Shown here piece after piece: positions 6,467 to 48,000 of a stretch of 60,000 nucleotides of DNA. This DNA is from Mobula hypostoma (lineage: Eukaryota), in assembly GCF_963921235.1 (NCBI RefSeq), contig NC_086108.1:32180001-32240000 (forward strand), read 5' to 3'. The position numbers were made by a program, and so were the translations under genes. The notes below the pieces were generated by a model. That model saw nothing but the letters and a program-made list of their open reading frames with translations, had not been told where the DNA came from and ran no database searches. The first letter of the stretch is position 1; each line of letters opens with the position of its first letter.

Positions 6467-6670
6467 CTTGAGGATCAACATCTTTTGCTAACTTAAGTGC
6501 ATCTGAATTAGCCAAATCTGTGTTAGCTGGTGTTACGGCTAAAATAAGGCACCTTTTTTGTATGATGAATTGCATAATCATGTCCCTGATCTGGTACTCA
6601 ATATCTGCTGGTTGATCTCCTACTGGCACTTTTGTGATACCAGGCAAGTCAATCAAGGTCAAGTTTAGCA
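6467..6670 (-). CDS. dnm3: Dynamin exon 4 (G3 DLPG motif)
   Basis: acag|TG CTA...CAA G|gtaagg; 204 nt; [69 protein letters not shown]. Confidence 0.97.
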
Positions 6671-8114: not shown

Positions 8115-9671
8115 CAGTGTCTATAAAATGTGTTCACCACCCCCTTGGAAGTTTTCATGTTCTATTGTTTTATAACAATGAATCACAGTGGATTTAATTT
8201 GGCTTTTTTGAAACTGATCAACAGAAAAGACTCTTTTGTGTCAAAGTGAAAACAAATTTCTGTATGTTGGTCTAAATTTATTACAATTATTTAACACAAA
8301 ATAATTGATTGCATAATTACTCACCCCCTTCAAGTCAGTACTCAGTCGATGCACCTTTGGCAGCAATTATAGCCTTGAGTCTGTGTGGATAGGTCTCTGT
8401 CAGCTTTGCACATCAAGACACTGCAATTTTTCCCCATTCCCCTATACAAAACTGATCAAGCGCTGTCATAGACTGCATGGGGATCATGAATGAAAAGTGC
8501 TTTACAAGTCCAGCCACAAATTCTCAATTGGATTGAGTTCTGGACTCTTGACTTGACTACTCCAGGACATTAACTTTGTTGCTTTTAACCCATTCCTTTG
8601 GCTTTATACTTCGGGTCATTGTCTTGCTAGAAAATAAATCTTCCCCCAAGTCACAGTTTTCTTGCAGTCTACAGCAGGTTTTCCTCCAGGATTCCCTGTA
8701 TTTTGCTGCATTCATTTTACTCTCTACCTTCATAAGCCTTCCAGGGCCTGCTGCAATGAAGTATCCCCACAGCATGATGCAGCTTACGCCAAACATAGCA
8801 TTTAGTCTGATGGCCAAAAAGCTCAATTTTGGTTTCATCAGACCATAGAACCTTCTGCCAGCTGCCTTCAGAGTTTCCCATATGCCTTCTGGCAAACTCT
8901 AGCCAAGGTTTCATGTTAGTTCTTCCTCTTTACCACTCCCCTATAAAGCTGCCACTGATCAAGCACCCGAGCAACAGTTGTTGTATGCACAGTCTCTCCC
9001 ATCTCAGCCACTGAAGCTTGTAACTCCTCCAGTTATCATAGTGTCTCTTGGTGCCCTCCCTCACTAGTTCCCTTCTTGCATGGTCACTCAGTGTTTGAGG
9101 ATAGCCTGCTCTGGAAAGATTTACAGCTGTACTATATTCTTTCCATTGCTTGACAATTGACCTAATGTAAGCCAATGGATATTCGGTGACTTGGAAATCT
9201 TCTTGTATCCATTCCTGACTTGTGCTTTTCATTAACCTCTTCATCGAGTTACTTGGAGTGTTCTTTTGTGCTCATGGTGTAGTTTTTGCCAGGACACAGA
9301 CTCACTAGTACTTGGACTTTCCAGATTCAGGTGTATTTTTCCTACAAACAATTGAAACACCTTGACGGCACATAGGTCTCCAAAAACTAATTATGTGACT
9401 TCTAAAACCAATTAGCTGCACCAGTGATGATTTGGTGTGTCATACTAAAGAAGAGAGAATCCTTACGTGAATCAATGATTTTGTGTTTTATATTTGTAAT
9501 TAATTTAGATTACTTTGTAGAGATCTGTTTTCACTTTGGCACAAAAGAGTCTTCTTCTGCTGATCAGTGTCAAATGAGCCAACTTATATCCACTGTTATT
9601 CAATGTTGTAAAACAATAAAATTATGAAAATCTCTGGGGGGGGAGGGGGATGAATACTTTTATAGGCACTG
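8115..9671 (-). mobile_element. Tc1-like DNA transposon with long (~220 bp) TIRs and a decayed transposase
   Basis: TA|cagtgtctataaaa...ttttataggcactg|TA; extended inverted repeats; frameshifted transposase pieces KVLWSDETKIELFG and KMNAAKYRE. Confidence 0.92.
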
Positions 9672-10134
9672 TAGGTGCTTTTAAGCAGTGTGCATTTTTT
9701 ACCTTTGACACACATTTCTCAAGTATTCTCCATATTAAATGCTTCGAATATTACATGCATTGAATAGCGTTTTGTTGGATTTGGCAATCCAAGAAGTTTG
9801 TGTACGCCACTTCTTTTAGTGGACACTGGCACATCTTATCAGGTTCTTCAAAGCTAGAGAATTTCATCATTTCTTTTTTCTACAGCGTTTTAAACATCAT
9901 CTGTCAATTTCATGCAAGTTGGAAGTATTTCATTTTCCTTTTCTACTAAGTTAGGAACCAAATTCATTTGTAAACCTGGACAAATCACCCACCAGTGTGG
10001 TTACTTCAGTTTGCCATTTATAAATGGCAAGATCTCTCCTGAAAGCAGCTTTCTACACAAAAATGCCATATGGAATCAGTTCATAGTCATCTTAAGATAC
10101 ACGGAAGTAAAGTTCAATTTCACCTTTTACATAC

Positions 10135-10284
10135 CATTTGGTGAGTGGATTCTCAGGTTAATGGGTATTGATGAAATCCCTTTGTTTGTTCCAGTTGCCC
10201 TGTCTGTTTCTACTTCAATTTCACGACACACTTCTTCAAAATCAGTGAACTTCTCTCCTTTACGATGTAGGAATTCAGCATATT
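10135..10284 (-). CDS. dnm3: Dynamin exon 3
   Basis: tatag|AA TAT...AAT G|gtatgt; 150 nt; [58 protein letters not shown] is DNM3-like. Confidence 0.95.
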
Positions 10285-10899
10285 CTATAACAAAGAAAAA
10301 TAGTTAAATAATGGAACTATACATATAGGCCACTAAAGATGAGCAATATTGAACAAAAGTAAGTTTCTTTGACTCAGGAGGCACCATCAGTCATATCAAG
10401 GTAACAACATAAACGCTGTCAATAATGGACAATCTTAGTAAGACAAAGATAAGGTTCTATGAAAAGTTTATTAAATCAACAGGCATTCCATAGACTAATG
10501 CTTGCTTTTCATATTTTAGAGTAATCTGTTTCTTTTAGGAAAAACCCTACTTCTCTTTCAAAAATGCAGTGAGACCTTTTACATCATCCTTAAGAATAAT
10601 AAAGAAGCATAAAAAAAATTTGCTGCAGTCAAAATTAAGCATTCACCACATCTTTCTCTACACATCATATCCTTTTTCCAGTTACAGTGGAAGATCATTA
10701 ACTGAAATATTTTTCTCTCTATAGATGCTGCCTACCCTGCAGAGAATTTATTTCAATGTAGAGATATTATCTTCACTGTGATGTGCAAATAGAGAGTCAA
10801 AATCGTACACTAGAATCCAGGCTACACACAATAATTTTATGTCTGGTAATATTCTTGAAGTTAATGTAGAAAATAAATATTCAGTAGAATGTACATTAC

Positions 10900-10973
10900 C
10901 TGTAGTACAGTTAACCAGTTGTAAAATGAGAGGCCGTCTTGTAACAATGCCTGGCCCTCGGGGAAGAAAATCT
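10900..10973 (-). CDS. dnm3: Classical dynamin (DNM3-like) exon 2, switch I region
   Basis: ttag|A GAT TTT...ACA G|gtaatg; 74 nt; translates (R)[24 protein letters not shown](E). Size and phase match vertebrate dynamin exon 2. Paralog assignment is tentative. Confidence 0.95.
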
Positions 10974-12534
10974 CTAAGGTTATAAGAGGGAAAGAGGCAA
11001 ATTTTAAGTTTTGTTTTCACTAAAAACAAAGATATTAGGAAAAAAACCTGTTACAATATTTACAGCAGCAATAAGAGCCCAAAAGGAAAACTATGTTAAA
11101 TTGTACGAGATGTTAAGCCATATAGGGCTGCACTTGGCTGACAGGTTGCAATGAAATTAAATTCAAGATGTAAATCTCTAGACCCAACACCTCACACTGT
11201 AGTGAACAAGAGGGACATCAATATGCTTGAATTTAGTCCACATGCACCAAACAAGATTTTTATCAATACCAGTTATTGACAACTGATTTAAATCTACATT
11301 TAAAGAAAAAGTTTCAGCATCTTCCAAATCTTGGTGAAGCTAAGTCATGTTTTTCCAAAAATACTGATAACATAAAATGTAACAGATATGAATCTTGAGG
11401 AAGGAGGGAAAAATGGGATACAACTAAAGTAAAAAAGAAAGAAAAAAAGAAAAAAGAATGTGCAATTGCCTTTGGGAATGCAAAGTGAATCCACAGCTTT
11501 GTTTTAACACTGAAAATGTAATAGCTGAGCAACGTATGATATTTTGAAACAAATGAAGTTGAACTCCTTCTACTGACACCTAAAAAGTTCTGGTCCTTTA
11601 CTGTTCAAAGTGGAAGACGTTGAAAGCCAAAACATTATGCTTTGGAAGCACACGAAGCAGCAGGAGTGCAGAGCACCTCACAAATTATCCGACCCTCCAC
11701 ACCTACCTTTTAGAATCCATAAAACTTGAGTAAAATTAAGATGGAAATGGGAGGGGTTAAGCAAGAAGCCTCAAGTCATCACTGTAATTTCTAGTTTCTA
11801 ATAATGAACCAGATTCAGAAATTCAAATTAAAATTAATCATGTAAATATGAAAGCTGAATGTTATCTCAGTAAACAAAAAAGAACAGTATAAAGTATGTT
11901 GCTTAGGTCGCATAATGGCAAAATAATTTAAGAGATAAATGACTTATTTTTCATGAATCTTGTTAACACACAAAATGTAAGGGAGTGAAAGAGGCCTTAA
12001 TAATTTCAACAATTTGTATCCACAAGCACAGAGGAGCATTCAGCCATAGTTTAAAACCTATTCAAGGGCACACTCAAATTATAAAAGATCCCAGCCAGAC
12101 TACACAAGCTCTTGTCCCGGGAATATTAATGAAACTTTCAAGACTTAAAAAAAATTCACACTGCCAAATTACAATTGCAAAATACCACGGAAGCTGGAAC
12201 TCATAAATGAAAACATACAATTCGAAAAGTACTCTGTAGACCAGGTAGCATCTAGCATCTACGAGGGGGAAAAAAAAGCTACTTGTACTTCAGGATAATG
12301 ATTTGTCCTCAGCTAAAAATTGTAACTTAAATATTGAGTCATGAGAATGGCTGGAAAACTTGGGTCATAATTTTTAAAAATGCACAGAAGATGTAAATTT
12401 TTAAAGTTATCACAATATAAGTATATGCGAAAGAAATATAATGCTTAAGTTAGGCAAAGCCCAATTTAAGGTGTACTAGGAGTTCTTCATGTGAAATGAG
12501 AATTCTGCATTTAAAGGCAACATACTGCAATTGT

Positions 12535-14465
12535 CCAGTGGAAAACAGGCGTTTGGCTCATATGTCAAGTTTAGGAAGCTAGAATCAAATCGAGCCCTTG
12601 AGGACTATAAAGAAGCCAGAAAAGAACTCAAGGAAGAAATTAGGAAAGCCAGAGGGACCATGAAAAATTCTTGGCAAGTAGGATTAAAGAGAATTGCATG
12701 GCATTTCATACATATATCAAGAGTGCAGCAGCAAAAATTGATCCAAAATCAAAACAAAACAATGCCGCCAGCCTGCAACCCCACAGAGATGTTATACTTC
12801 TGTGACATGCCCACAACTCCAATGATTGTTCCAAAGAGTCGAATTTCCTATTTCAATACTTTAGCAATTAGCAAGCATACAATTAAGCATTATCTCAGCG
12901 GTCAGCAAAGATAAGACCTCCGTGGTCCCAAGCTACAAACTGCCACTAAATGAGCAGGAATACGCAACTTACCCCCCTTTGCTTTTACCACAGCCCTACC
13001 GATGTGTTACGGTAACTAGTCATACATAATAAATAGACAGCACAGAATACATAGCTCCAACAAAACCAGGAGGGGGACCATTTGCTTGGAGAAAATGTGG
13101 GAAAGGTCTTAAATGAGTACGTTGCATCACTAGTTACCAAGGAGAAAGATGTGGTGGGAAAGGGGAGCAGTGCCAAGCATATTAATAAACTAGGGAATTT
13201 TGAAGGTAATGGTGTTGGGTCTCTTGAAGAGCAATAAGGTGGACAAGTCTCCAAAGCCTGATGGGATACACCCCAAGTTATTGATAGAAGCAAGAAATGA
13301 GACTGCTGTGGTCTTGACCAATATCTTGTTCTCCTCTTTAGCCAGAGGCAAGATCCTCGAAAAAAGCGAGTTACTAATTTTGTTCCATTATTCAATAAGG
13401 GAACCGGGGATGATCCTGGAAAATACTGACCAGAGACTCTCAAGTCAATGGTAGGGATAGAATTTATCAGCATTTGGAAAACCATGACCTAATTAGGGAG
13501 AGCCAGCATGGTTTTGTGCAGGGAAAGTCACATCTTACTAACTTGATTGAGGTTTTTGACAAAATGATGAACATGATTGGAGAAGGTAAATGATGGACAC
13601 TGGCTGCATGGATTTTAGTAAGGTGTCTGACAGGTACCTCATCGGAGACTCGTCCATGAGTTTAAGATGCATGGGATCCATGGTGAATCGGCCATTTGGA
13701 TTCAGAATTGGCTCACCTATAGAAGACAAATGGTAGTGGTTGAAGGGCCTTGTTCTAGCTGGAGGTCTGTGATTAGTGGCGTTTTGCAAGGATCTGTAGT
13801 GGGACCTCTGCTGTTTGTGAAGTATATAAATGATTTGAATAAAAATGAGAATGGGTGGGTTAGTAAGCTTGTAGATGATTGGTGCTGTTGTAGAAAGCTT
13901 AGAAGACTGGCAAAGAATACAGTGGGATATAGACCATTTGCAGATATGACCAAAGAAATAGCAGATGGAGTTTACCAGCCAAATGTGAAGAGTTGCACCT
14001 TGATAGGCTAAATGTAACGAGACAATACACTGTCAACGGCAAGATTCTGACAGTATTGATAAGTAGAGAGATCTTGGGGGCTAAGTTCATAGCTCCCTGA
14101 ATATAGCTATAGGGGTTGATAGAGTGGTAGGAAGGCATATGGCAATCTTACCTTTAATAGCCAAGGCATTGAGTTCAAAAGTCAGGAAGTTGTAGCTTTA
14201 TAAAACCCTAGTTCGGCCGCATCTGAAGTTTTGCTTACAGTTCTGGTCACCTCATTATAGGACGGATAACAAGACTTTGGACAGGGTGCAGAAGAGTGTC
14301 ATTCCAGGGGCTTTCAGATAGCCACATGAATTTGCAGGAAATGGAGAGGCATGGATTATGCGGAGGCAGAAGGGATTAGCATAATTTGCCGTGGTGATTG
14401 GCCTAGATATTGAGTGTTGAATGGCCTGCTACTATATTGTGTTAAGTTGTGTTGTTCTATGTTCC
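12535..14465 (+). mobile_element. Degenerate CR1 LINE ORF2 and 3' end, with an unrelated insert at ~12725-13065
   Basis: VDKSPKPDGIHPKLL; WIQNWL...SGVLQGSVVGPLLF; tgttctatgttc tail. Confidence 0.85.
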
Positions 14466-15150
14466 ATTCTCAAGAAGTAGAGAGGATGACCCTTTTATTC
14501 CCTGCACCCCGCCAAAAGTAATTTTAGAAATCTTTTCCCTGTATAAAGCTCAGTTCAGGGAGGTTGTTTCAGGTGTCTGGTGGCTATCACAGAGACAATG
14601 TTGTTTGCCAAGATTTCGCTGGGAAAGGATGCTGAAACTGATTCACTTATCCTGCCATAGACTTGGAAAATTCTTCAAGACATCATTGATAACATTACTC
14701 CAGTATTTTCATGTGCCTGTTGTAGGTAATCTACATCTCAACATCTCCTCAGGGAGCAGGACTTACTGCTGCTCAGTGGATAATGTGGGATTCAATCTGC
14801 AAACTTCCTTTTCCTCAGCTAGCTAAAGACAGTGCTAATGCATCAAAGGCAATGATGAATTCCATCATCAATGTCTGTTTTCACTGAGAGATAGTACTCA
14901 AGATATGAAAAATGGCCTATGCTTTACAAATCTTGCAGTGTATTGTCAGAAAGTGGTGTTGTACAGAGGGCCAAGTTGATAAAGGACAGTTACTTTGTGG
15001 ATGTTGAGGGTATAATCCATTGTCTTCAATGTTTCTGCACAGAAACACCAGCACCATCTACATAATGCAGCTCAACTACTGATACTGGGAGGACCTTGGA
15101 TATGGACTTGAGAAAACACTTGTTAAGAAGTTTCAACTAAATTCTGTCCT

Positions 15151-15712
15151 GAAGTGTCCAGGGAAGGGTAGCACCTCTGGTGGCGGGCTTGTCGTGCTCT
15201 GCCCAGGGGCAGTTCATCCACTTTTGGTTCCCACACCACCTAGCTCTCACCTGCGGCTCCAACTAACTGTTTGCATGCAATAGTGGCCACAGCCCTGGCA
15301 CACCGCTTCGACAGGCAGGCTAAACCAGGTGAGGGTAGCCAGGAACCTCCAACTCCGGTGAGACAGGGATAAGGATATGCCTAGCCCAGCATGAGAAGCC
15401 AGTTTCAGCAGACTGGGTGGATGAGATCAATTACAAGATCCAATGGCCAAGGTGGCAGTGCTGCAATGCTTCGTGGAGAGTGAAGGGCACACAAGGCAAA
15501 AGTAGTATCATGGTTATCCACTGCAGCCAAGGAAGACTCTAGTCATGACAATTTTTTGTACCATTGGAGCAAGATTTTTGAGGCAGAGAGACTGGAACTG
15601 ACCCAGTGCAAGGAAGGGCTTTTTCACCATAAAATTCATCCCACACAGGTTTTTCCTCTGTGCAGCTCAAGCCGCACAGGCAAACATCATCATCAGAAAG
15701 GATGGACAATGA
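15151..15712 (+). mobile_element. RTE-derived non-autonomous element, older copy with decayed HDV-like ribozyme
   Basis: Homologous to the reverse complement of 42534-43104 (gggtagcacctctggtgg...ctctcacctg...gctaaaccaggtgagggtagcc). Confidence 0.75.
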
Positions 15713-16353
15713 ACACTAAATTCTGCAGATAAATTACAGTTCAGCAAAAAAACTTATTGGAGCAATGTGCAATATTGCTGCAAAGAAAACTAAAGATAAA
15801 ATTGTGGACATTGATGCAGCCTCCTGATACCATACATTGAAATTGCCTACTGGTCAGGATCATGGCTTGCACATTTGTGAAGCAAAAGTGAATCCTGAAC
15901 TTTCTACAAATTCTAAAGATCAAGAGTCTATCAATAAAGCCAAATCTGCCACTGCATAAGTTTCACAATCTGGATCCGATCATATATTGCTGAGGTGACG
16001 TTAAACTGTACATACTCAAAATTATTACATTTGAGTGGCTAATTTATAATAAAATCACAAACAAAATCAGTTATCTTATTGTATCAACGTAATGTTAAAA
16101 AGAGGCAAAAATCCTGTGTCTAATATATATTGTGCAGGTTTTATACATACTGGTAATTGAATTTAAGGCGAGGTGATCAAAGTCATTTGCCACATTCTCA
16201 ATGAGTACAGTGTATCATTCATGCTAAATTATTACATGCCATTTGCCTTTATAGTAAATACTTCCTGACTTAAAAATAAATTTCCTTTAAATTAAGGAAT
16301 TCTCACTCTTCTAATGATATTGTCTTTTCCCTCACAACCATGTAACATATTTA

Positions 16354-16372
16354 CACTGCCCTCATGTGGTCA
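16354..16372 (-). promoter_or_regulatory. Candidate CTCF site
   Basis: Minus strand tgaccacatgagggcagtg resembles the CTCF consensus. Confidence 0.35.
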
Positions 16373-18180
16373 TACAGCTATATAACACAGAAGAGGTCGT
16401 TCAGCCCAATTTATACTTGCTAACAAAGCTGCCCATCTAAACTAGCCCCATTTCTCTGTGTTTGGCCTATATCACTCTAAACCTTTCCTATCTATATACT
16501 GGCCCAAATATCTTTTAAATGTTGAAATTGTACCAGTCTCTACCACTTCCTCTGGCATTCATCCCATATACTCAGATTAATTATCAACAGATGTCATGAA
16601 ATTTGTTTTGTAGCAACAGTACAGTGAAGGACAAAATTACGAAGTTACAATATAAATAGTGCAAAAGACAAATAATGATGTACAAGTGCACATTCCTTTA
16701 TCCGAAATTCTAAAATCCAAAAAGCTCTGAAAACCGAAGTCTTTTTCGCCAACAGCTGATGTCACTCAGGTGTGTCGTGACAGCACTAGCAGAGGCCGCC
16801 AGTCGTCAGTTGTAGCTCAGCACTCGTACTGGTTACATATCCATGTGCTATTTGCTGATATTTTGTGTTCACTGTTGACTTTGTGTTTAATTTCACTGTG
16901 AAAATGTCACAAAGAGGTGCAGATACCCCTATGGGTAACAATGAGAAAAAGAGAAGGAATCTTCTCTATCAATAACGCAGAAAGTGGAGTTATTGCAGAA
17001 GCTTGATCGTGGTGTGTCTGTGCGGCGTCTTACTCAAGAAAATAATGTCGGAACTACCACTGTATATGATTTAAATAAACAGAAAGACAAGTTACTGAAG
17101 TTTTATAGTGACACTGACAGTGATGTTCTACATTTATTCCAATAAGTCATTTACCATGTGTTGATTCGGTTCGTTTGAAGCTGTATATTTTTATGTTTTA
17201 TTGAATGTTTTTGTTGGAAATAAAATTTCTTCATCATTATTCCCTAAACAATACAGTATAACAATTATTTACATAGCATTTACATTGTATTAGGTATTAT
17301 GTAATCTAGAGATGATTTAAAGTATACGGGAGGATGTGCGTAGGTTTGGTGCGCTGCTGGGTTTTAAAATCCACCACACTGAGACAGGTTAAATAAGGGA
17401 CTTGAGCATTCGTGTTTTTTGGTATCGGGGGTGGGTGGGGGGTCTGAAATCCGAAAAATTCTGAATTCTGAAATGCAACTGGCCCCAAGGATTTCGGATA
17501 AGGGACTGTGGACCTGTAGTGTTCACAGACTTCAAAAATCTGATAGTGGAGGGGAAGAAGTTGTTCTTAAAACATTGAATATGTCTCTTCAGGGTCCAGT
17601 ACCTCCTCCACAAAGGTAGTTATGAAAAGAGGACATTTCTGAGATGGTGACAATCATTAATGATTGACACTGCCTTCTTGAGGCACAACTTCTTGAAGAT
17701 GTTCTCGATGGCAAGAAGGTTGTGTCTGTGACGGAACTGAGTCCACAGCCTGCTGAAGCCTCTTGATCCTGTGCATTGGAGGCTCCATACCAGACTATGA
17801 TGCAACCCGTCAGAATGCTCTCCACCATACATCTATGAAAATTTGCAAGAGTCTTTGTTGAAGCAGCAAATCTCCTCCAACTCCTAATGAAGTCCCCCCC
17901 CCCCATACGCTGTATGAAATAGTTGCTCTTCAAATGCCCTAAGAAATAGTTGCTCTTTAAATCCACTCTCACTTTAAACCTATGCCCTCAAGTTTTGGGC
18001 TCCCCTGCTCTGGGGAAAGGACTCAGGCTATTTACTTTATCAATACTCTTCATGATTTTATAAAGCTCTACAAAGTGCCCCCTCAACTTCTTTCACTCCA
18101 GGGGAAATATGTCCTACTTTATCCAGCCTCTCCCCATAACCCAAGCCCTTCAGTTCAAGTAACATCTTTGCAAAGCTAGG
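16372..18180 (-). mobile_element. CR1 3' fragment interrupted by a Rex1/Babar-like LINE 3' fragment (~16575-17895)
   Basis: CR1-like tail pieces flank the Rex-like ORF FIRSWRRFAASTKTLANFHRCMVESILTGCIIVWYG. Confidence 0.65.
16683..17516 (+). mobile_element. Tigger/pogo-type internally deleted DNA transposon
   Basis: TA|caagtgcacattcctttatccgaaatt ... gatttcggataagggactgtggacctg|TA. A frameshifted CENP-B-type HTH fragment starts at 16904: MSQRGADTPMGNNEKKRR/ITQKVELLQKLDRGVSVRRLTQENNVGTTTVYDLNKQKDKLLKFYSD. Confidence 0.88.
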
Positions 18181-18546
18181 TGTCGTGATAGATAAAAACT
18201 TTTCTAAAAGTACAAGACTAAAAGTGCTCTCTCCCCTACAAGACAGAAGTAATGAGATATAAATTGTTCTTGAGTATTAATTTGGAAGTGTTAAAGGTCA
18301 AATAGGTTGTTATATAAATCAAATTACCTTTTGGTTGAATTTATTTCCTTAAAGAACGTTAGAGCCAATTTGGAACCTTACTTAACACCTAAATATCCAT
18401 CCCAACTTCCATCTAAGTTAATCTTTTCAGTGGGCATGCCCAAGTCCAACACACAACTCCTAAAGCAATTCCATTTATGTCATGGAATAGGTTAACAAGC
18501 AAACAGGGGGAAAGACTACAATACACAAAAATTCCTTAAGTGAAGG

Positions 18547-19166
18547 CAACTGGACTGGTCAAAGAACACTGAGGCTGTCGACAAGAAGGGTCAGAGCCGT
18601 CTCTATTTCCTGAGGAGACTGAGGTCCTTTAACATCTGCCGGACGATGCTGAGGATGTTCTACGAGTCTGTGGTGGCCAGTGCTATCATGTTTGCTGTTC
18701 TGTGCTGGGGCAGCAGGCTGAGGGTGGCAGACACCAATAGAATCAACAAACTCATTCGTAAGGCCAGTGATGTTGTGGCGATGGAACTGGACTCTCTCAC
18801 GGTGGTGTCTGAAAAGAGGATGCTGTCTAAGTTGCATGCCATCTTGGTCAATGTCTCCCATCCACCACATAATGTTCTGGGTGGGCACAGGAGTACATTC
18901 AGCCAGAGACTCATTCCACCGAGATGCAGCACAGAGCGTCATAGGAAGTCATTCCTGCCTGTGGCCATCAAACTTTACAACTCCTCCCTTGGAGGGTCAG
19001 ACACCCTGAGCCAATAGGCTGGTCTTGGACTTATTTGATAATTTACTGGCATAATTTACATATCACTATTTCACTATTTATGGTTCTACTGCTATTTATT
19101 ATTTATGGTGCAACTGTAACGAAAACCAATTTCCCCCGGGATCAATAAAGTATGACTATGACTATA
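18547..19166 (+). mobile_element. Rex1/Babar-like LINE, 5'-truncated
   Basis: LYFLRRLRSFNICRTMLRMFYESVVAS...; aataaa plus (tatgac)n tail; nearly identical to 33010-33623. Confidence 0.88.
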
Positions 19167-24849: not shown

Positions 24850-26890
24850 ATATCTGAGAGAACAAGAGTATAAAAGCAAGGATGCAATGCTGGGGCTTTA
24901 CAAGGCATTGGTCAATTTGTATTTAGAGCACTGTGGGCAGTTTTGGGTCCCTTATCAAAGAAAGGTTGTGCAAGCATTGGAGAGGATCCAGAGGAGGTTC
25001 ACGGGAATGACCCCAAGAATGTAACCCAGTTAACATATCAGGAGCACTTGATGGCTCTGGACCTGTAGTCAGTGGAGTTTAGTGGAGAAATTAATTGAAA
25101 CAAATCAAATATTGAAAGGCCAAGGTAATGTGGACATGGAGAAGATGTTCACTTAGTGGAGGTGTATAGGTCCAGAGGGCACAGTCTCAGCCCCTTTATA
25201 ATAGAGACGAGTAGGAATTTCTTTAGTCAGAAACATAGAAACATAGAAAATAGGTGCAGGAGTAGGCCATTCGGCCCTTCCAGCCTGCACCGCCATTCAG
25301 TATGATCATGGCTGATCTTCCAACTCAGAACCCTGCACCTGCCTTCTCTCCATACCCCCTGATCCCTTTAGCCACAAGGGCCATATCTAACTCCCTCTTA
25401 AATATAGCCAATGAACTGGCCTCAACTGTTTCCTGTGGCAGAGAATTCCACAGATTCACCACTCTGTGTGAAGAAGTTTTTCCTCATCTCGGTCCTAAAA
25501 GGCTTCCCTTTTATCCTTAAACTGTGAGCCCTCGTTCTGGACTTTCCCAACATCGGGAACAATCTTCCTGCATCTAGCCTGTCCAATCCCTTTAGGATTT
25601 TATACGTTTCAATAAAATCCCACCTCAATCTTTTAACTTTCAACGAGTATAAGCCTAGCCGATCCAGTCTTTCATCATATGAAAGTCCTGCCATCCCAGG
25701 AATCAATCTGGTGAACCTTCTTTGTACTCCCTCTATGGCAAGAATGTCTTTCCTCAGATTAGGGGACCAAAACTGCACACAACAGTCCAGGTGTGGTCTC
25801 ACCAAGGCCTTGTACAACTGCAGTAGTACCTCCCTGCTCCTGTACTCAAATTCTCTTGCTATGAATGCCAGCGTACCATTCGCCTTTTTCACCGCCTGCT
25901 GTACCTGCATGCCCACTTTCAATGACTGGTGTATAATGACACCCAGGTCTCGTTGCACCTCCCCTTTTCCTAATCGGCAACCATTCAGATAATAATCTGT
26001 TTTCCTGTTTTTGCCACCAAAGTGGATAACCTCACATTTATCCACATTAAATTGCATCTGCCATGAATTTGCCCACTCACCTAACCTATCCAAGTCACCC
26101 TGCATCCTCTTAGCATCCTCCTCACAGCTAACACTGCCGCCCAGCTTCGTGTCATCCGCAAACTTGGACAGGCTGCATTTAATTTCCTCATCTAAGTCAT
26201 TAATATATATTGTAAACAACTGGGGTCCCAGCACTGAGCCTTGCAGTACCCCACTCGTCACTGCCTGCCATTCTGAAAAGGTCCCGTTTATTCCCACTCT
26301 TTGCTTCCTGTCTGCCAACCGATTCTCTATCCACATCAATACCATACCCCCAATACCGTGTGCTTTAAGTTTGCACACCAATCTCCTGTGTGGGACCCTG
26401 TCAAAAGCCTTTTGAAACTCCAAATATACCACATCCACTGGTTCTCCCCTATCCACTCTACTAGTTACATTCTAAAAAAATTCTATGAGATTCGTCAGAC
26501 ATTTCCTTTCACAAATCCATGCTGACTTTGTCCGATGATTTCACCTCTTTCCAAATGTGCTGTTATCACATCTTTGATAACTGACTCTAGCATTTTCCCC
26601 ACCACCGATGTTAGGCTAACCGGTCTATAATTCCCCGGTTTCTCTCTCCCTCCTTTTTTAAAAAGTGCCCCCATGGGGTAGAATCTGTGGAATTCATTGT
26701 AACGGACAGCTGAGGAGGCTAAATTGGGTGCATTTAAAGGGAGGTTAATAAATTCTTGATTTGTAAGGGTGTCAAGCATTCCAGAGAGAAGGCAGGAGAA
26801 TAATGTTGAGTTGGATAATAAACCAGCCATGATGGAATAATGGAGAAGACTTGATGGGGCAAATTCTGCTCCTATGTCTTATGGTCTCAT
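24850..26890 (+). mobile_element. CR1 3' fragment, split by an antisense CR1
   Basis: YKSKDAMLGLYKALV...RRFTGM; resumes at ~26675 (gaatctgtggaattc) and ends cctatgtcttatggtc. Confidence 0.75.
25231..26667 (-). mobile_element. Young CR1 LINE, 5'-truncated, RT ORF largely open
   Basis: ORF 25422-26456 with QGSVLGP, FADDTK and C-terminal LGLYSL; (ttctatgt)n tail. Confidence 0.93.
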
Positions 26891-32302: not shown

Positions 32303-33623
32303 GGCATTGACGGCCCACATGATGAAAACCCTGGACAGACTTGTTCTGGAGCTGCTCCGGCCTATGGTCAGGCCACACTTGGATCCCCTCCAGTTCGCCT
32401 ACCAGCCCCGACTAGGAGTTGAGGATGCCATCGTCTACCTGCTGAACCGTGTTTACGCCCACCTGGACAAGCCAGTGAGCACTGTGAGGGTCATGTTTTT
32501 TGACTTCTCCAGTGCGTTCAACACCATCCGCCCTGCTCTGCTGGGGGAGAAGCTGACAGCGATGCAGGTGGATGCTTCCCTGGTATCATGGATTCTTGAT
32601 TACCTGACTGGCAGACCACAGTACGTGTGCTTGCAACACTGTGTGTCCAACAGAGTGATCAGCAGCACTGGGGCTCCACAGGGGACTGTCTTATCTCCCT
32701 TTCTCTTCACCATTTACACCTCGGACTTCAACTACTGCACAGAGTATTGTCATCTTCAGAGTTTTCGGATGACTCTGCCATAGCTGGATGCATCAGCAAG
32801 GGAGATGAGGCTGAGTGCAGGGCTACGGTAGGAGACTTTGTCACATGGTGTGAGCAGAATTATCTGCAGCTTCATGTGAAAAAGACTAAGGAGCTGGTGG
32901 TAGACCTCAGGAGAGCTAAGGTACCAGCGACCTCTGTTTCCATCCAGGGGGTCAGTGTGGACATGGTGGAGGATTACAAATACCTGGGGATACGAACTGA
33001 CAATAAACTGGACTGGTCAGAGAACACCAAGGCTGTCTACAAGAAGGGTCAGAGCCATCTCTATTTCCTGAGGAGACTGAGGTCCTTTAACATCTGCCGG
33101 ACGATGCTGAGGATGTTCTACAAGTCTGTGGTGGCCAGTGCTATCATGTTTGCTGTTGTGTGCTGGGGCAGCAGGCTGAGGGTAGCAGACACCAACAGAA
33201 TCAACAAACTCATTCGTAAGGCCAGTGATGTTGTGGGGATGGAACTGGACTCCCTGACGATGGTGTCTGAAAAGAGGATACTGTCCAAGTTGCATGCCAT
33301 CTTGGACAATGTCTCCCATCCACTACATAATGTACTGGGTGGGCACAGGAGTACATTCAGCCAGTGACTCATTCCACCGAGATGCAACACAGAGCATCAT
33401 AGGAAGTTATTCCTGCCTGTGGCCATCGAACTTTACAACTCCTCCCTTGGCATGTCAGACACCCTGAGCCAATAGGCTGGTCCTGGATTTATTTCATAAT
33501 TTACTGGCATAATTTACATATTACTATTTAACTATTTATGGTTTTATTATTATTTATTATTTATGGCGAAACTGTAACGAAAACCAAATTCCCCCGGGAT
33601 CAATAAATTACGACTATGACTAC
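32303..33623 (+). mobile_element. Rex1/Babar-like LINE RT, 5'-truncated, frameshifted
   Basis: LDPLQFAYQ, FFDFSSAFNTI, GAPQGTVLSPFLF, FSDDSAI; (gactat)n tail. Confidence 0.92.
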
Positions 33624-37399: not shown

Positions 37400-37732
37400 T
37401 TACTGGTGAGAAGTGGAACCTTTTTAGGGACACTGCTTAGGGATTGGGAGGCTGTTTTCAGATCAGAGGATAAGACAACTAAGTCAACAAGAGCCATGTA
37501 CTCCCATTCCATTAGGAAAGGAAAGCCAGAGTTCTCAAAGAAAATTCACATCACCTTTGTGACACCAGGGTCATGCAGCATATGTGCAAAGGTATACAAA
37601 CCGTAACAGGTTACAAGTCCATCCTGCGCATCAACAGCAACGCTTCCCCTTCTAATAGAACACAAGACCATAAGACATAGGAGGAAAATTAGGTCCTTCA
37701 GCCCATCAAGTCTGCTCCGCCATTCCATCATG

Positions 37733-39529
37733 TTAAGAGCAAAAAGATTGTAAGGGATAAAATTGGTCCTCTTGAAGATCAGAGTGGTCGGCTATGTGCG
37801 GAACCAAAGGAAATGGGGGAGATCTTAAATAGGTTTTTTATGTCTGTATTTACTAAGGAAACTGGCATGAAGTCTATGGAATTGAGGGAATCAAGTAGTG
37901 AGATCATGGAAACTGTACAGATTGAAAAGGAGGAGGTGCTTGCTGTCTTGAGGAAAATTAAAGTGGATAAATCCCCGGGACCTGACAGAGTGTTCCCTCT
38001 GACCTTGAAGGAGACTAGTGTTGAAATTGTGGGGGCCCTGGCAGAAATATTTAAAATGTCGCTGTCTACGGGTGAGGTGCCGGAGGATTGGCGAGTGGCT
38101 CATGTTGTTCCATTGTTTAAAAAAGGATCGAAAAGTAATCCAGGAAATTATAGGCCGGTGAGTTTAGTATCGGTAGTAGGTAAGTTATTGGAGGGAGTAC
38201 TAGGAGACAGAATCTACAAGCATTTGGATAGACAGGGACTTATTAGGGTGAGTCAACATGGCTTTGTGCGTGGTAGGTCATGTTTGACCAATCTATTGGA
38301 GTTTTTCGAGGAGGTTACCAGGAAGGTGGATGAAGGGAAGGCAGTGGATATTGTCTACATGGATTTCAGTAAGGCCTTTGACAAGGTTCCGCATGGGAGG
38401 TTAGTTAGGAAAATTCAGTCGCTAGGTATACATGGAGGTGGTAAATTGGATTAGACATTGGCTCAATGGAAGAAGCCAAAGAGTGGTGGTAGAGAATTGC
38501 TTCTCTGAGTGGAGGCCTGTGACTAGTGGTGTGCCACAGGGATCAGTGCTGGGTCCATTATCATCTATATCAATGATCTGGATGATAATGTGGTAAATTG
38601 GATCAGCAAATTTGCTGATGATACAAAGATTGGAGGTGTAGTAGACAGTGAGGAAGGTTTTCAGAGCCTGCAGAGGGACTTGGACCAGCTGGAAAAATGG
38701 GCTGAAAAATGACAGATGGAGTTTAATACAGACAAGTGTGAGGTATTACACGTTGGAAGGACAAACCAAGGTAGAACATACACGGTTAATGGTAAGGCAC
38801 TGAGGAGTGCAGTAGAACAGAGGGATCTGGGAATACAGATAAAAAATTCCCTAAATGTGGCATCACAAGTAGATAGGGTCGTAAAGAGAGCTTTTGGTAC
38901 ATTGGCCTTTATTAATCAAAGTATTGAATATAAGAGCTGGAATGTTATGATGAGGTTGTATAAGGCACTGGTGAGGCCGAATCTGGAGTACCGTGTTCAG
39001 TTTTGGTCACCAAATTACAGGAAGGATATAAATAAGGTTGAAAGAGTGCAGAGAAGGTTTACAAGGATGTTGCCGGGACTTGAGAAACTCAGTTACAGAG
39101 AAAGGTTGAATAGGTTAGGACTTTATTCCCTGGAGCGTAAAAAAATGAGGGGAGATTTGATAGAGGTCTATAAAATTATGATGGGTACAGATAGAGTGAA
39201 TGCAAGCAGGCTTTTTCCAATGAGGCAAGGGGAGAAAAAAACCAGAGGACATGGGTTAAGGGTGAGGGGGGAAAAGTTTAAAGGGAACATTAGGGGGGAC
39301 TTCTTCACACAGAGAGTGGTGGGAGTATGGAATGAACTGCCAGATGAGGTGGTAAAGGCGGGTTCCTTTTTAACATTTAAGAATAAATTGGACAGATACA
39401 TGGATGGGAGGTGTATGGAGGGATATGGTCTGTGTGCAGGTCAGTGGGACTGGGCAGAAAATGGTTCAGCACAGCCAAGAAGGGCCAAAAGGCCTGTTTC
39501 TGTGCTGTAGTTTCTATGGTTCTATGGTT
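37733..39529 (+). mobile_element. CR1 LINE ORF2 RT and 3' end, 5'-truncated
   Basis: ORFs 37813-38454 and 38716-39510 (NYRPVSL, DFSKAFDKVPH, FADDTK); (ttctatgg)n tail. Confidence 0.93.
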
Positions 39530-41005: not shown

Positions 41006-42533
41006 TCCTCTGGTTCCCTCACACTAATGTCCTATCTAATACTACCCAAATCACCCAAGAATGTAGGATTTAGAAAGCAAGGGATGTGCGAGAGATTAAA
41101 AAAATACTATGCTTGATCATTTTCTAGAGGTTCCCACTTCTACTTCAGCAGTAGTACAGCCATGGCCACAAATTACACCAGCATCGTCATCACCTCTAAT
41201 TTTGCAGCTGAAGATGTGCAGCAAAGTACAAGCTAACAATATGCAAGCATTCATAGTCATAATTCAGGGAAAATATGTTTACTGATCCATTTGATGCAAG
41301 AAGCATCAGGAACAAAGGTGATGAACTGAGAGCTTGGATACATACATGGAATTATGATGTAGTGGCCATTACAGAGACTTGGCTGGCACCAGGGCAGGAA
41401 TGGATTCTCAATATTCCTGGATTTCAGTGCTTTAAAAGGGATGGGGGGGGGAAGGGGAGGAGGAGTGGCATTACTGGTCAGGGATACTATTACAGCTACA
41501 GAAAGGGTGGGTAATGTAGCAGAATCCTCTTTTGAGTCAGTATGGGTGGAAGTCAGGAACAGGAAGGGAGCAGTTACTCCATTGGGAGTATTCTATAGGC
41601 CCCCTGGTAGCAGCAGAGATACCAAAGTGCAGATTGGGAGGCAGATTTTGGAAAGGTGCAAAAATAACAGGGTTGTTATCATGGGTGACTTTAACTTCCC
41701 TAATATTGATTGGCACCTGATTAGTTCCAAGGGTTTAGACAGGGCAGAGTTTGTTAAGTGTGTCCAGGACAGATTCCTGTCACAGTATGTTGACAAGCCA
41801 ACTGGGGAAATGCCACACTAGATCTAGCATTAGGTAACAAACCGGGTCAGGTCACAGATCTCTAAGTGGGTGAGCATCTGGGGGACAGTGAACACTGCTC
41901 CCTGGCCTTTAGCATTATCATGGAAAAGGATAAAATCAGACAGGACAGGAAAATTTTTAATTGGGAATGGCAAATTATGAGGCTATAAGGCTAGAACTTG
42001 CAGATGTGAATTGGGATGATGTTTTTGCAGGGAAATGTACTATGGACATGTGGTCGATGTTTGGGGATCTCTTGCAGGATGTTAGGGATAAATTTGTCCC
42101 GGTGAGGAAGATAAACATAGAAACATAGAAAATAGGTGCAGGAGTAGGTCATTGGGCCCTTCGAGCCTGCACCACCATTTAGTATGATCATGGCTGATCT
42201 TCCAACTCAGAACCCTGTACCTGCCTTCTCTCCATACCCCCTGATCCCTTTAGCCATAAGGGCTATATCTAACTCCCTCTTAAATATAGCCAATGAACTG
42301 GCCTCAATTGATTCCTGTGGCAGAGAATTCCACAGATTCACCACTCTCTGTGTGAAGAAGTTTTTCCTCATCTCGGTCCTAAAAGACTTCCCCTTTATCC
42401 TTAAACTGTGATCCCTCGTTCTGGACTTCCCCAACATCGGGAACAATCTTCCTGCATCTAGCCTGTCCAATTCCTTTAGGATTTTATACATTTCAATAAG
42501 ATCCCCCCCTCAATCTTCTAAATTCCAGAGAGT

Positions 42534-43104
42534 GGTTGGTTGGTTGGTTGTTCATCCATCGTTGACGTCGATGAGGACCTCGACACCATTATGATGGTGT
42601 CAAGACTAGCGCGTGATTTGGATTTAAGTGAGGGAGAGTTGCGCAGTGTCAGCCTCACTCTATCTTCCCAATTCCCATCTGGATCCAGTGGCAAGACAGA
42701 GTCTAGACGGCTGGAGATGGCACTAGGCGCAATGGATGACCGGGACGTCTTCTGTGTCTTATTCTGCTCTACACGTTCCACGACGCTTGCAGAGACCGCC
42801 TTCTTGACTGTTGGACCTTCCATAGGTCTCGTCCGCTCAATCCGCCGGAGTCTGCCTTCACATGCAGGGATAGACAACTCCCTATCTCACCAAGGGTTTG
42901 AGACCTGTCGGCTACCCTCACCTGGTTTAGCCGGCTTGTGGAAGCCGTTGCCCGGGGTATGGCCGCTGTCGCATGCAAACAGCTACGGGGAGCCACAGGT
43001 GAGAGCTGAGTGCCAGGTGGGGACCAAAGGTGGACTAACCGCCCTGAAAAGGACGCAACATGTTCCCCACCAGAGGTGCTACCCCTCCCTGACACCCCAA
43101 ACAC
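42534..43104 (-). mobile_element. Young full-length RTE-derived non-autonomous retroelement (~570 bp)
   Basis: 9-bp TSD ccagagagt (42525-33, 43105-13); (caac)n tail; CpG-rich; ribozyme-like fold at the 5' end. Confidence 0.85.
42917..43098 (-). ncRNA. HDV-like self-cleaving ribozyme (predicted)
   Basis: P1 GGGGUGU/AUACCCC; P2 CUCACCUGU/AC(C)AGGUGAG; P3 GGC/GCC; L3 UCCCCGUA plus hairpin; GGGCAA; P4 CGGCUU-CCAC-AAGCCG; J4/2 GCUAA. Confidence 0.8.
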
Positions 43105-45033
43105 CCAGAGAGTATAAGCCTAGTCGATCCAGTCTTTCATCATATGAAAGTCCTGCCATCCCAGGAATCAATCTGGTGAACCTTCTTTGTACTCCCTCTA
43201 TGGCGAGAATGTCTTTCCTCAGATTAGGGGACCAAATCTGCACACAATACTCCAGGTGTGGTCTCACCAAGGCCTTGTACAACTGCAGTAGTACCTCCCT
43301 GCTCCTGTACTTAAATCCTCTTGATATGAATGCCAGCATACCATTCGCCTAAGAATGGTAGGGTGAAGGAACCATGGGTGACAAGTGAGGTGGAAAATCT
43401 AGTCAAGTGGAAGGAGGCAGCATATATGAGGTTTAGGAAACAAGGATCAGATGGGTCCATTGAGGAACATAGGGTAGCAAGAAAGGAAGGGGCTGAGAAG
43501 AGCAAAAAGGGGGCATGAGAAGGCCTTGGCGAGTAGGGTAAAGGAAAACCCCAAGGCATTCTTCAGTTATGTGAAGAACAAAAGGATGACAAGAGTGAAG
43601 GTAGGACCCATTAGAGATAAAGGTGGGAAGATGTGCCTGGAGGCTGTGGAAGTGAGCGAGATCCTCAATGGATATTTCTCTTCAGTATTCACCAAGAGGG
43701 AACTTGATGATGGTGAAGACAATATGAGTGAGATTGATGTTCTGAAGCATGCTGATATTAAGGGAGAGGAGGTGTTGGAGTTGTTGAAATACATGAGGAT
43801 GGATAAGTCCCCAGGGCCTGACGGAATACTACCCAGGCTGCTCCACAAGGTGAGGGAAGAGATTGCTGAGCCTCTGGCTAGGATCTTTATGTCCTCGTTG
43901 TCCACGGAAATGGTACCAGAGGATTGGAAGGAGGCGAATGTTGTCCCCTTGTTCAAAAAGGTAGTATGGATAGTCCGGGTAATTATAGACCAGTGAGCCT
44001 TATGCCTGTGGTGGGAAAGCTGTTGGAAAGATTCTTAGAGATAGGATCTATGGGCATTTAGAGAATCATGGTCTGATCAGGGACAGTCAGCATGGTTTTG
44101 TGAAGGGAAGATCATGTCCAACAAGCCTGATAGAGTTCTTTGAGGTGGTGACCAGGCATATAGATGAGGGTAGTGCAGTGGATGTGATCTACATGGATTT
44201 TAGTAAGGCATTTGACAAGGTTCCACATGGTAGGCTTATTCAGAAAGTCAGAGGCATGGGATCCAGGGAAGTTTGGCCAGGTGGATTCAGAATTGGCTTG
44301 CCTGCAGAAGGAAGAGGGTCATGGTGGAAGGAGTACATTCGGATTGGAGGGTTGTGACTAGTGATGTCCCACAAGGATCGGTTCTGGGACCTCTACTTTT
44401 CGTGATTTTTATTAACGACCTGGATGTGGGGGTAGAAGAGTGGGTTGGCAAGTGTGCAGACGACACAAAGGTTGGTGGTGTTGTAGATAGTGTAGTGGAT
44501 TGTTGAAGATTGCAGAGAGACATTGATAGGATGCAGAACTGGGCTGAGAAGTGGCAGATGGAGTTCAACCCGGAGAAGTGTGAGGTGGTACACTTTGGAA
44601 GGATAAACTCCAAGGCAGAGTACAAAGTAAGTGGCAGGATACTTGGTAGTGTGGAGAAGCAGAGGGATCTGGGGGTACATGTCCACAGATCCCTGAAAGT
44701 TGCCTCACAGGTGGATAGGGTAGTTAAGTAAACTTATGGGGTATTAGCTTTCATAAGTCGAGGGATAGAGTTTGTCGCGAGGTAATGATGCAGCTCTATA
44801 AAACTCTGGTTAGGCCACACTTGGAGTACTGTGTCCAGTTCTGGTCGCCTCACTATAGGAAGGATGTGGAAGCATTGGAAAGGGTACAGAGGAGATTTAC
44901 CAGGATGCTGCCTGGTTTAGAGAGTATGGATTATGATTAGAGATTAAGGGAGCTGGGCTTTACTCTTTGGAGAGAAGGAGGATGAGAGGAGACATGATAG
45001 AGGTATAAAAGATATTAAGAGGAATAGATAGAG

Positions 45034-48000
45034 ACAATACAATTCATAAAATAAAGAATCCAAAGACAAAGCTTGTGGAGAGTACAATAGGGAAAATTCA
45101 AGAAAGTTTTGAAACGTATTATCGAGAGCTGTACTCCCAACCCCGGGCCCCCAATGAGCCCTATATAGACAGTGTATTGAATTTTTTAGATCTACCTAAA
45201 CTTACAGATTTACAAAATGAAAGTTTATTAGAACCAGTAACTGTCAAAGAACTGAACGTGGCCATCTCTAGGTTAAAGGCTGGAAAGTCCCCGGGTTCTG
45301 ATGGGTTTACCTCAGAGTGGTACAAGTCCCTGAAGACACAGTTAGCCCCATTACTACTTAACACCTTTAATTGGATCTTGCAGAGAGGAGAAACTCCACC
45401 TTCCTGGAGAGAAGCGATTATTTCAGTTATTCCTAAAGAGGGTAAAGATAAACTAGAATGTGGCAATTATCGGCCAATTAGTGTTCTTAATTTAGATTAC
45501 AAACTATTTACATCTATATTAGCGCGCAGATTGGAAAAGCTTTTACCTGGCCTAATCCATTTAGACCAGACTGGATTTATTCAACAAAGACAAACACAGG
45601 ACAACATAAGGAGAACTCTGCACATATTAGAACAGGTTAATAAGAACGAGACAGAGACAATGGTAGTAGGATTGGACGCTGAGAAAGCTTTTGATTCGGT
45701 TAGTTGGGCATTCCTATACAGAGTGTTAGGAAGATTCGGCTTTCAAGAAAGGTTTATTAAAGTAATTCAGACTCTGTATGACAGCCCAACAGCCCGAATT
45801 AAGATAAATGGGGACCTCTCTGACTCCTTCATTTTAGAGAGAGGCACTAGACAGGGATGCCCAATTTCTCCTCTCCTTTTTGCGCTATATATTGAACCAC
45901 TTGCCCAACTAATAAGACAGAGCGAAATCGTAAAAGGTATCAAGGTGGCAGGGATTGAACAGAAAGTGGCGTTATTCGCAGATGATGTTTTGGTCTATCT
46001 GAGTGAACCAGAAAAATCATTTATAGGATTGTTTACACTGTTGGATGACTTTGGGAAAATATCAGGTTATAAAATAAATGTAAAGAAAACGCAGGTTATG
46101 TCCCTAATTTATACACCATCCAAAAAATTGCAGGATACATACGATCTTAAGTGGGAAGCTAAATCATTAAAATATTTAGGAATAACCCTGCCGAAGGATC
46201 TTTCAACACTGTCACAGGTAAATTATGGGCCAATAATCTCAGAGATAAAAGCAGATATGCATAGATGGAATCTTATCCCCTTTTTAAGTTTAAATTCAAA
46301 GGATAAATACTATAAAAATGAATATTCTTCCTCGGTTATTATATCTTTTCCGTACTTTACCAGTGGAGGTGGATGATAATCAATTCAGGGAATGGGACAA
46401 ATGGATTTCCCGCTTCATTTGGCAAGGAAGGAAACCTAGAATTCGATATAACATTTTACAGTTAGGGAAGGAAAGAGGAGGTATGGTTCTTCCTTGCCTG
46501 AGAAATTATTTTTATGCCTCACAGATAACCCCTCTGTTATATTGGTGTAATAGGGAATATTAGATGGAAGGAAATAGAATTTGGATTAGTTGACAGTTTT
46601 CCTCTTCAGGCCTCAATAGCTGACAAAGGATTGATGGCCCAGTTGGAAAAATTTAATAATGCTTGGATAAATCTTACATTAAAAGTATGGCAGAAGGTGG
46701 TTAATTCATGTGGAATTAATAACATGCTAAAACTCTTTAGATGGTGTGCATATGATACCGAATTCCTTCCCAACAGAGGAGATAAAAGATTTGAGCTATG
46801 GATAAAGAAAGGTCTTACAACCTACCTCTCATTTATAGATAAAAGAGTATTACAAAGTTTCCAAATCCTGCAGGACAAACATGGCCTAGAACATAATGAC
46901 TTTTTTAGGTACCTTCAAATACGAAACTATGTTAACCAGAGTTGTAGATATACAGACCTATCAACAGTAGAATTAGAATTTTTCAAGATTCTGAATTCGG
47001 CTTGCAGTTCAATACCTAGTAAATCAGTTTCTCGCCTATATAATGCACTCTCCCATGCTAAAAATGTAAATACACTGTATATTAAAGAGAAGTGGGAGAA
47101 AGAAGCGGGGTTGGTACTTTCAGAGGAGGCTTGGGGGAAAATCTGCAGCTTTCAATGGTCCTCGACTAATTCTTTGACTTGGAGAGAACATTGTTGGAAA
47201 AACATTATAAGATACTTCAAGACCCCATATCAGGAAAAATATAAAGATACAAATGTGATGTGTTGGAGAAGGTGCGGCTCCAAGGAGGCAAATCATTTTC
47301 ATATTTTCTGGGATTGCCCTAAATTAAGTCTATTTTGGGAAGGTATTCATAGAACATTAGTTAAGGTACTTAGGTCCCAGATACCTCTGAACTTTGAGAC
47401 GCTCTATTTGGGGCATGTATTGTTCCTTGAACAGAAGGAAGATATAAAGTTGCTGCAGGCCCTCTTAGCGGCAAGTAAGAAATCAATCACTAGAAAATGG
47501 CTAAATCCAATACCACCTACATTAGAAGATTGGTACGAAATTATCTTGGAAATATTTAAAATGGAAAAGTTGACCTACTCCCTGAGAACTCAAAAAGAAA
47601 CATTTTATCAAATCTGGAATAAATGGATTGAATATATAACCCCAATGCGAGCAGACTTTAGATGACTCTCCTAATGATTTATATTGCTCTTCTCATCAAC
47701 ACAGTAATATTGCTAACGTAAGCACCCCTAGTCTAAATGTTTGTTGTTTTTTTTTGGAAAATAGAGAATTAACACAAGTAAAGGGAAAGATTTGGGAAAG
47801 GGATAAAAAAAATGAAAAAATTAAGTAAATAAGTACATAGGGATTGGATAATTATGTCTGCGGGCAGGAACAAGCACGAACAAATTGGGATATAAACACC
47901 TACAATGGTTGGTATATAGGCTTGTATGCAACATTTTGGACCAGTGGAAATGGTCCAGAAGAGTTGTATGGAAACTATTATTACCATTTTTCTTAACAAC

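Follow-up and report, generated by a model that had tools for sequence, protein, structure and literature searches.

The window (the complete stretch of 60 000 nucleotides analysed here) consists of repeat-rich eukaryotic DNA and carries on its minus strand a short non-coding element, hereafter copy 1, made up of an RTE-type 5′ UTR part, a 3′ stem-loop and an (ACCA)n tail (Table 1). This insertion splits a CR1-like element, the two flanks of which are contiguous in the other CR1 copy (25418-25835). An older and decayed copy belonging to a sister family (copy 2) lies on the opposite strand and is 68% identical to copy 1 over 461 columns; no endonuclease remnant was found in either copy by tblastn. 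Exons of a dynamin-family gene (Pfam Dynamin_N) were located on the minus strand near 5.4, 6.6 and 10.9 kb (5447, 6438-6752 and 10748-11050) and, since the P-loop exon of this gene is absent from the window, copy 1 and copy 2 probably share one large intron, in which copy 1 has sense and copy 2 antisense orientation. LINE-type fragments are found at 18544-19017, 32304-33367, 45009-47665, 25422-26878 and 37693-39510, and from the resemblance of their translations we take these to be CR1-like, Rex-like and L1/Tx1-like.

Table 1. Positions of the element copies and of the predicted ribozyme parts in the window
Feature	Position	Strand	Remarks
Non-coding element, window copy (copy 1)	42534..43104	-	571 bp between target-site duplications; insertion-end joints in reads
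Target-site duplication, downstream copy, 9 bp	42525..42533		Inside CR1-like element
Target-site duplication, upstream copy, 9 bp	43105..43113		Last two G overlap the 5′ G run of the element
Copy 2, older, decayed, sister family	15147..15714	+	568 bp, 11-bp target-site duplication
P1 5′ strand, first heptamer	43101..43107	-	Predicted cut site 5′ of 43107; copy 1 has U for G1
Second identical P1-type heptamer	43092..43098	-	Normally pairs at the base of the J1/2 stem; candidate spare cut site
Structured J1/2 domain, 10-bp basal stem (P1.2-like)	43008..43097	-	z -2.92; 1/200 shuffles as stable
P2 5′ strand (43005-42996) and P3 5′ strand (42994-42992)	42992..43005	-	
L3, 28 nt	42964..42991	-	Canonical 8-nt part, inserted hairpin, one G
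Inserted L3 hairpin	42965..42983	-	6-bp stem, 7-nt loop, palindrome GCAUGC 42976-42971
P3 3′ (42963-42961), P1 3′ (42960-42954), P1.1 GG (42953-42952) and J1.1/4 (42951-42948)	42948..42963	-	
P4 hairpin, 6 bp	42932..42947	-	z -2.59; stable beyond shuffles
J4/2 (predicted catalytic C 42930) and P2 3′ strand (42924-42915)	42915..42931	-	Identical in 3/3 sequences
Second GCAUG	42861..42865	-	Kept in 3/3 sequences; candidate L3-loop partner of weak specificity
L3 hairpin of copy 2	15266-15284	+	ACUGUU-UGCAUGC-AAUAGU

A metagenome scan that used the two P2 strands only, and was blind to L3, returned a single locus (L001), positions 1388-1860 of which align with window positions 42638-43107 across the core and the downstream UTR (252 of 347 identical, i.e. 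73%). Further downstream L001 contains an open frame with an APE-type endonuclease, its nearest named proteins being from coral, sea urchin and other animals. The neighbours named 'craniofacial development protein 2-like' presumably bear an RTE/BovB-derived name, and the layout of a UTR followed by an endonuclease is one that we take to be that of an RTE-type LINE. The last 65 nt of the window element had no significant match in 23 loci, the sequence of L001 ending short of its own 3′ end. On this comparison the window element is best read as a bipartite non-autonomous RTE derivative. RTE elements carry 5′ HDV-like ribozymes and spawn bipartite non-coding derivatives, according to the available text of PMC5786205, PMC6765202 and PMC7936874, and the non-autonomous class is described in the accessible parts of PMC5786205 and PMC7245038. 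Like its members RTESINE1/2, WALLSI3 and MAR4_MD, as portrayed in that part of PMC5786205, the element is short and non-coding, with an RTE 5′ UTR, a microsatellite-tailed 3′ end and a target-site duplication; its core motifs had no sequence match in the supplements of PMC5786205 and PMC7245038.

The predicted HDV-like core

The sequence-only reading had proposed an HDV-like fold at this locus, and a descriptor scan with a free L3 length bears this out, recovering the core helices and conserved bases in both copy 1 and L001: P1 (7 bp), P2 (10 bp), P3, P1.1, U20, G25 and J4/2 (C-U-A-A), with P1.1 (CC/GG) and U20.G25 at canonical spacing. The 17-mer running from J4/2 into P2 occurs exactly twice in the window against 0.21 occurrences expected even with three mismatches allowed. 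J4/2 reads GCUAA in all three sequences compared (copy 1, copy 2 and L001) and fits C-N-R-A with the predicted catalytic C. The strands of the 10-bp P2 and the 3-bp P3 are likewise complementary in all three; they are invariant, so this is complementarity only, with no evidence of pairing from change. The second pair of P4 is G-C in copy 1 and C-G in L001, and the stability of this hairpin corresponds to z values of -2.6 and -3.3. According to the available text of PMC6326823, published designs hold U20, G25, C-N-R-A and G1 constant. The 3′ GAGGG was also inspected by eye as a possible twister, and this reading was rejected, there being no fitting cleavage-site strand and all HDV elements being present.

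The P1 5′ heptamer is doubled in tandem in both lineages (window 43092-43107, minus strand; L001 1388-1403). All seven P1 pairs can form in L001, while in copy 1 the first heptamer, having lost G1, offers six of seven and the second offers seven of seven; this second heptamer could act as a spare cut site where the first G is lost, as in copy 1. Copy 2 has lost its G25 equivalent, its P1 is broken and its P1.1 and U20.G25 features have decayed. Judged by known ribozyme rules copy 2 is dead, because the G25 equivalent and part of P1 are gone; loss of G25 abolished cleavage in an R2 ribozyme (PMC3774820, available part).

Bases 42903-42914 (minus strand), directly past P2, are complementary to the P2/P3 5′ strand. 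When about 10 bases past P2 were added in a nested minimum-energy fold, in which pseudoknot energy is not counted, the P2 probability of copy 1 dropped from 0.98 to 0.00-0.03 and L001 wavered. Re-pairing past P2 may confine cleavage to a co-transcriptional window, or it may be an artefact of ignoring the pseudoknot.

Ruminski and colleagues are said to have placed HDV-like ribozymes, in 2011, at the 5′ termini of non-LTR retrotransposons, RTE among them. The motif described here resembles those in its 5′-terminal position, its nested double pseudoknot and the part it probably plays in releasing the RNA of the element out of a host transcript; unlike them, as far as the accessible descriptions go, it has an L3 of 26-28 nt with a hairpin and a doubled P1 5′ strand, and it belongs to a non-coding derivative in a vertebrate genome. 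It shares with HDV's genomic and antigenomic ribozymes and with CPEB3 the bases U20 and G25, a C21-C22/GG P1.1, a J1.1/4 linker and a catalytic C in J4/2 (available text of 10.1101/2022.09.22.508989 and PMC6326823), but L3 in HDV and CPEB3 is given there as 7-8 nt. The CPEB3 palindrome, moreover, is described in those parts as lying within the core loop of L3, where it competes with P1.1, whereas the palindrome here is carried on a separate hairpin. The motif also resembles drz-Agam-2-1, a large HDV-like ribozyme in which J1/2 is likewise long and structured, with a P1.2 stem, and P2 is extended (12 bp there, 10 bp here); this architecture is reported to make cleavage faster. The peripheral domain of drz-Agam-2-1 lies in J1/2, and the accessible part of that report describes no L3 domain (PMC4908430). 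The R2 ribozymes are also 5′ retrotransposon ribozymes tolerating a long J1/2 and a variable P4, but in the available text of PMC3774820 their L3 is reported as conserved, with only the spacing altered in jewel wasp, and no L3 hairpin is described.

The probable hairpin in L3

A 28-nt L3 containing a hairpin is present as had been claimed, on the minus strand, where L3 reads from 42991 to 42964 as UCCCCGUA + GCUGUU-UGCAUGC-GACAGC + G and is closed by GGC/GCC. The canonical 8 nt occupy 42991-42984 (U20 at 42991, C21-C22 at 42990-42989 and G25 at 42986), and the hairpin is grafted on the 3′ side of L3, after position 27, with U20, C21, C22 and G25 at their normal spacing. L3 measures 28, 28 and 26 nt in copy 1, copy 2 and L001 respectively, the hairpin of L001 having a 5-bp stem (one pair shorter), a C-G>U.G change and the same GCAUGC loop. 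Conservation between copy 1 and L001 upholds the proposal of an extra stem-loop in L3: identity is 15/19 (79%) in the hairpin and 20/22, 12/14 and 31/36 (86-91%) in core segments, compared with 55/101 in J1/2 and 63/114 in the downstream UTR (54-55%). All 16 hairpin cells of the three sequences are paired, with one double and three single-sided changes, and every change seen, including the one-pair deletion, keeps the stem.

The sequence-only reading had also seen, in copy 2, a G-C pair turned into A-U with the stem kept, and had offered this as covariation. Pairing is indeed kept in copy 2, but four stem positions differ rather than two (G-C>A-U, G-C>G.U and U.G>U-A), and the argument from covariation is not supported: it amounts to one double change in a decayed copy and is not significant over the three sequences, for which 68 of 500 shuffles reach the double-change count and 50 of 500 the covariation score. 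The 3′ base of the double change is a CpG cytosine, and seven of the 12 CpG bases common to copy 1 and L001 are changed in copy 2. One double change or more appeared in 5.5% of the runs of a neutral-decay simulation, which starts from the copy-1 hairpin and so assumes a copy-1-like ancestor; in 2.9% the stem was preserved as well, and exactly four changes left it whole in 10%.

Compared with shuffles the stability of the hairpin is unremarkable (the three copies have z of -1.39, 0.14 and -0.15); stems as long as this that run from end to end turn up in just 0.7% and 1.0% of shuffles. If P3 is imposed while the bases of the L3 core and of the P1/P1.1 3′ strand are kept unpaired, the stem has a pairing probability of 0.68-0.97 in copy 1 and 0.90-0.94 in L001, while forcing P2, P3 and P4 only gives the hairpin of copy 1 a probability of 0.34, owing to a rival register that takes the G25 equivalent. 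We consider the L3 hairpin very probably real, the argument from sequence resting on conservation and not on covariation.

Family ends, variants and searches for relatives

Contigs from four runs representing four related organisms (from 24 listed) were placed on window positions 42480-43160, amounting to 6,949-16,425 contigs per run with the CR1 flanks included; summed contig depth is not taken as copy number. Beyond 43106 the flanks are unrelated in 113 and 125 records in two of the four runs, the next letter being G on the element strand, and at the other element end they are unrelated before 42547-42549. An empty-site joint links 42524 to 43105 with 9 shared letters. The unrelated flanks beyond 43106, the G next to them and the empty-site joints place the start of the family at the first of the two tandem GGGGUGU heptamers, which is the predicted cut site.

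At 42959 the majority of the family, at 98-99.6% of depth, carries the base that makes P1 Watson-Crick throughout. Positions 23 and 24 of L3 vary freely, as expected for non-essential bases, and no G25 variant appears among the variants listed (40 of 104). A C-G>U.G variant of the L3 stem occurs independently at 28.6% of depth in one run, and in the four runs U replaces the last C of the palindrome at 12, 13, 52 and 6% of depth, respectively. The 40 listed variants include none at 42983 or 42965; the read-variant cut was 3%, below which the sub-family of copy 2 may fall. An L3 variant with AA at positions 23-24 reaches 15-28% of depth. At 43032, 184-270 records per run leave the window sequence with one consensus resembling the J1/2 of copy 2, and a sister subfamily with this other J1/2 exists in all four organisms. 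RNA runs (X15-X20) contained only 0.03-0.22 of the query words.

The expectation that published descriptors would miss the variant proved correct. RNArobo descriptors fix L3 as TYYHCGY (7 nt) and allow J1/2 at most 51 nt (PMC4870747 supplement, figures S11-S14); none of the three copies has a TYYHCGY loop, which is present in the control L072. None of them has the short L3 of 7-8 nt by which HDV-like ribozymes are recognized, and the long L3 bars filing the motif as a canonical HDV-like ribozyme. Rfam 15 gave no match at gathering over the window and two unrelated matches at E<=10 over 42400-43300. L072 (~2260-2350) and L104/L108 (~830-950) have HDV-like motifs of the classical kind, their L3 being 7 nt, upstream of LINE-like endonuclease frames; these loci are animal DNA contaminating bacterial assemblies and belong to two other LINE families. 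Bacterial assemblies with animal retrotransposon contigs (L065-L086 and L102-L137; 22 loci, with 20 matches in G003 alone) evidently reflect host contamination.

Among viral contigs the P2 pattern and the protein scans gave no match, the P3/P1 pattern gave 63 loci of which none had an upstream P1 strand or any extended likeness, and the loop pattern gave 15 loci, none matching model R1. The DNA pattern had no match in genome contigs, nor was there any match in plasmids, and model R1 matched none of five whole assemblies. No further hairpin-bearing homologue was found among the 22 + 36 RTE-like loci from protein scans, the 36 added loci coming from ten of the assemblies that yielded the 22 and in part repeating earlier loci. 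On RTE-like loci model R1 matched L068 (= L132) only, at 24.9 bits; this locus is homologous from P1 3′ onward, and in its P3/L3 stretch P4-J4/2 is repeated perfectly in inverted orientation, which makes L3 unreadable. Positions 177-345 of L068 form an RTE-type 5′ end in which the homology extends from P1 3′ past P2. Its P3/P4 region is spanned by the inverted repeat, 19 bp long and perfect, and on the 5′ side of this lies a 9-bp hairpin whose loop also contains GCAUGC.

Words of the element sequence had no match in literature text. In the accessible literature on HDV-like ribozymes, peripheral domains are described in J1/2 and P4 and an altered L3 spacing in one R2 element, and the L3-hairpin form was not found there; surveys of RTE ribozymes and fungal HDV variants, or their supplements, may list one. 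We lean towards regarding the L3-hairpin variant as undescribed.

Possible role of the hairpin and rival explanations

The element probably carries a real structural variant of a known HDV-like ribozyme in its known role. The explanation that best fits the whole, to which we give a probability of roughly 70%, is that an HDV-like ribozyme frees RTE-derived RNA and that the L3 hairpin projects from it, most likely as a recognition handle for a protein or another RNA segment. The first ~190 nt of the non-autonomous RTE-type retroelement would fold as an HDV-like nested double pseudoknot: a host transcript would read through the element, its RNA would fold co-transcriptionally, and the J4/2 cytosine would catalyse cleavage before G1. 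Proteins supplied by an autonomous RTE partner would then copy the freed RNA and insert it, so that new copies begin at the cut site. This course of events follows that of known HDV-like retrotransposon ribozymes (PMC6765202, PMC7936874). The hairpin would project from P3 and should stay out of the chemistry, being grafted past the bases that the active site needs; the L3 position after 27 is probably dispensable in HDV, a point on which no passage was found in the literature text searched. Recognition is the likeliest job of the hairpin, since it is conserved almost as well as the core and its GCAUG(C) loop, the most constant part, is fixed; (U)GCAUG is the RBFOX motif. Among the individual roles, a handle for a protein leads while staying somewhat short of an even chance, a folding clamp or tolerated passenger comes next, and pairing with a downstream GCAUG and homodimer kissing would be equally improbable at well below that. 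Against this explanation stand the small number of full sequences compared (three) and the missing G1 in the first heptamer of copy 1.

The ribozyme could be real and the hairpin just a passenger, inserted long ago where the fold permits it and common to these families only through one recent ancestor, possibly by horizontal transfer. We consider this unlikely, if still a serious contender: the hairpin is weak alone, its covariation is not significant, its loop C varies in reads, and the other LINE-linked HDV-like motifs (L072, L104/L108) have a plain 7-nt L3, but copy 1 and L001 agree at 79% of the hairpin positions against 54-55% in J1/2 and the downstream UTR, and the changes seen all keep the stem, a one-pair deletion among them. 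Two further proposals give the loop an RNA partner, and both seem distinctly unlikely to us. Two element RNAs might dimerise through the palindrome, by kissing and then by an extended duplex, regulating cleavage or pairing with the RNA of the autonomous partner. GCAUGC is kept in all three sequences, the 6-bp loop-loop duplex has an energy of -8.0 kcal/mol and the extended duplex one of -18.8 to -25.4 kcal/mol, and L3-palindrome dimers are seen in CPEB3 crystals; however, any palindromic hairpin gives such energies, a 7-nt loop can close internally, in one run the palindrome ends in U instead of C at 52% of depth, and the CPEB3 dimer is inactive, its relevance being left open by the authors (10.1101/2022.09.22.508989, available part). 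Alternatively the loop might pair within the same molecule with the second GCAUG, ~105 nt downstream, in a rearrangement of the 5′ UTR after cleavage. This downstream motif is kept in 3/3 sequences, the duplex energies are -11.2, -9.4 and -7.6 kcal/mol, and the bases past P2 can re-pair with the P2/P3 5′ strand, but the pairing is barely specific (best of all windows by only 0.5 kcal/mol in copy 1, second best in L001) and lacks covariation.

Less likely again is a fold without ribozyme activity, with an internal promoter or an RTE protein setting the 5′ end and the structure being a relic or giving way to an alternative one. Competing folds in longer transcripts and the lack of any Rfam HDV-type match even at E<=10 speak for this, as does L1Tc, in which an internal promoter and a ribozyme share the 5′ end (accessible text of PMC3383444). 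All core bases and helices are nevertheless kept between distant lineages, the 5′ end of the family coincides with the P1 5′ strand to the base and the family majority has a Watson-Crick P1.

L3 is part of the HDV active site, and its length is fixed in published search patterns. A natural 19-nt L3 hairpin would be a third peripheral domain besides J1/2 and P4, and genome surveys would undercount HDV-like ribozymes; the many-copy family offers a ready natural mutation series, and aptamers could be attached at a new site, the exit point in L3. That such ribozymes free the 5′ end of retroelements is already known. A broader proposal would make this a whole, hitherto overlooked subclass of HDV-like ribozymes on RTE retrotransposons of marine animals and cartilaginous-fish-like vertebrates. 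An L3 docking hairpin would link self-cleavage, through its GCAUG(C) loop, to a partner (an RNA-binding protein, an RTE protein or, by kissing, a second element RNA), and the doubled P1 would provide the spare cut site. We hold this to be quite unlikely as stated; it would build on two families in the Mobula hypostoma genome, relatives in the reads of at least three other organisms and one autonomous element. A vertebrate repeat and L001, an element whose protein is nearest to invertebrate sequences, share non-coding UTR at 73% identity, which is compatible with horizontal transfer.
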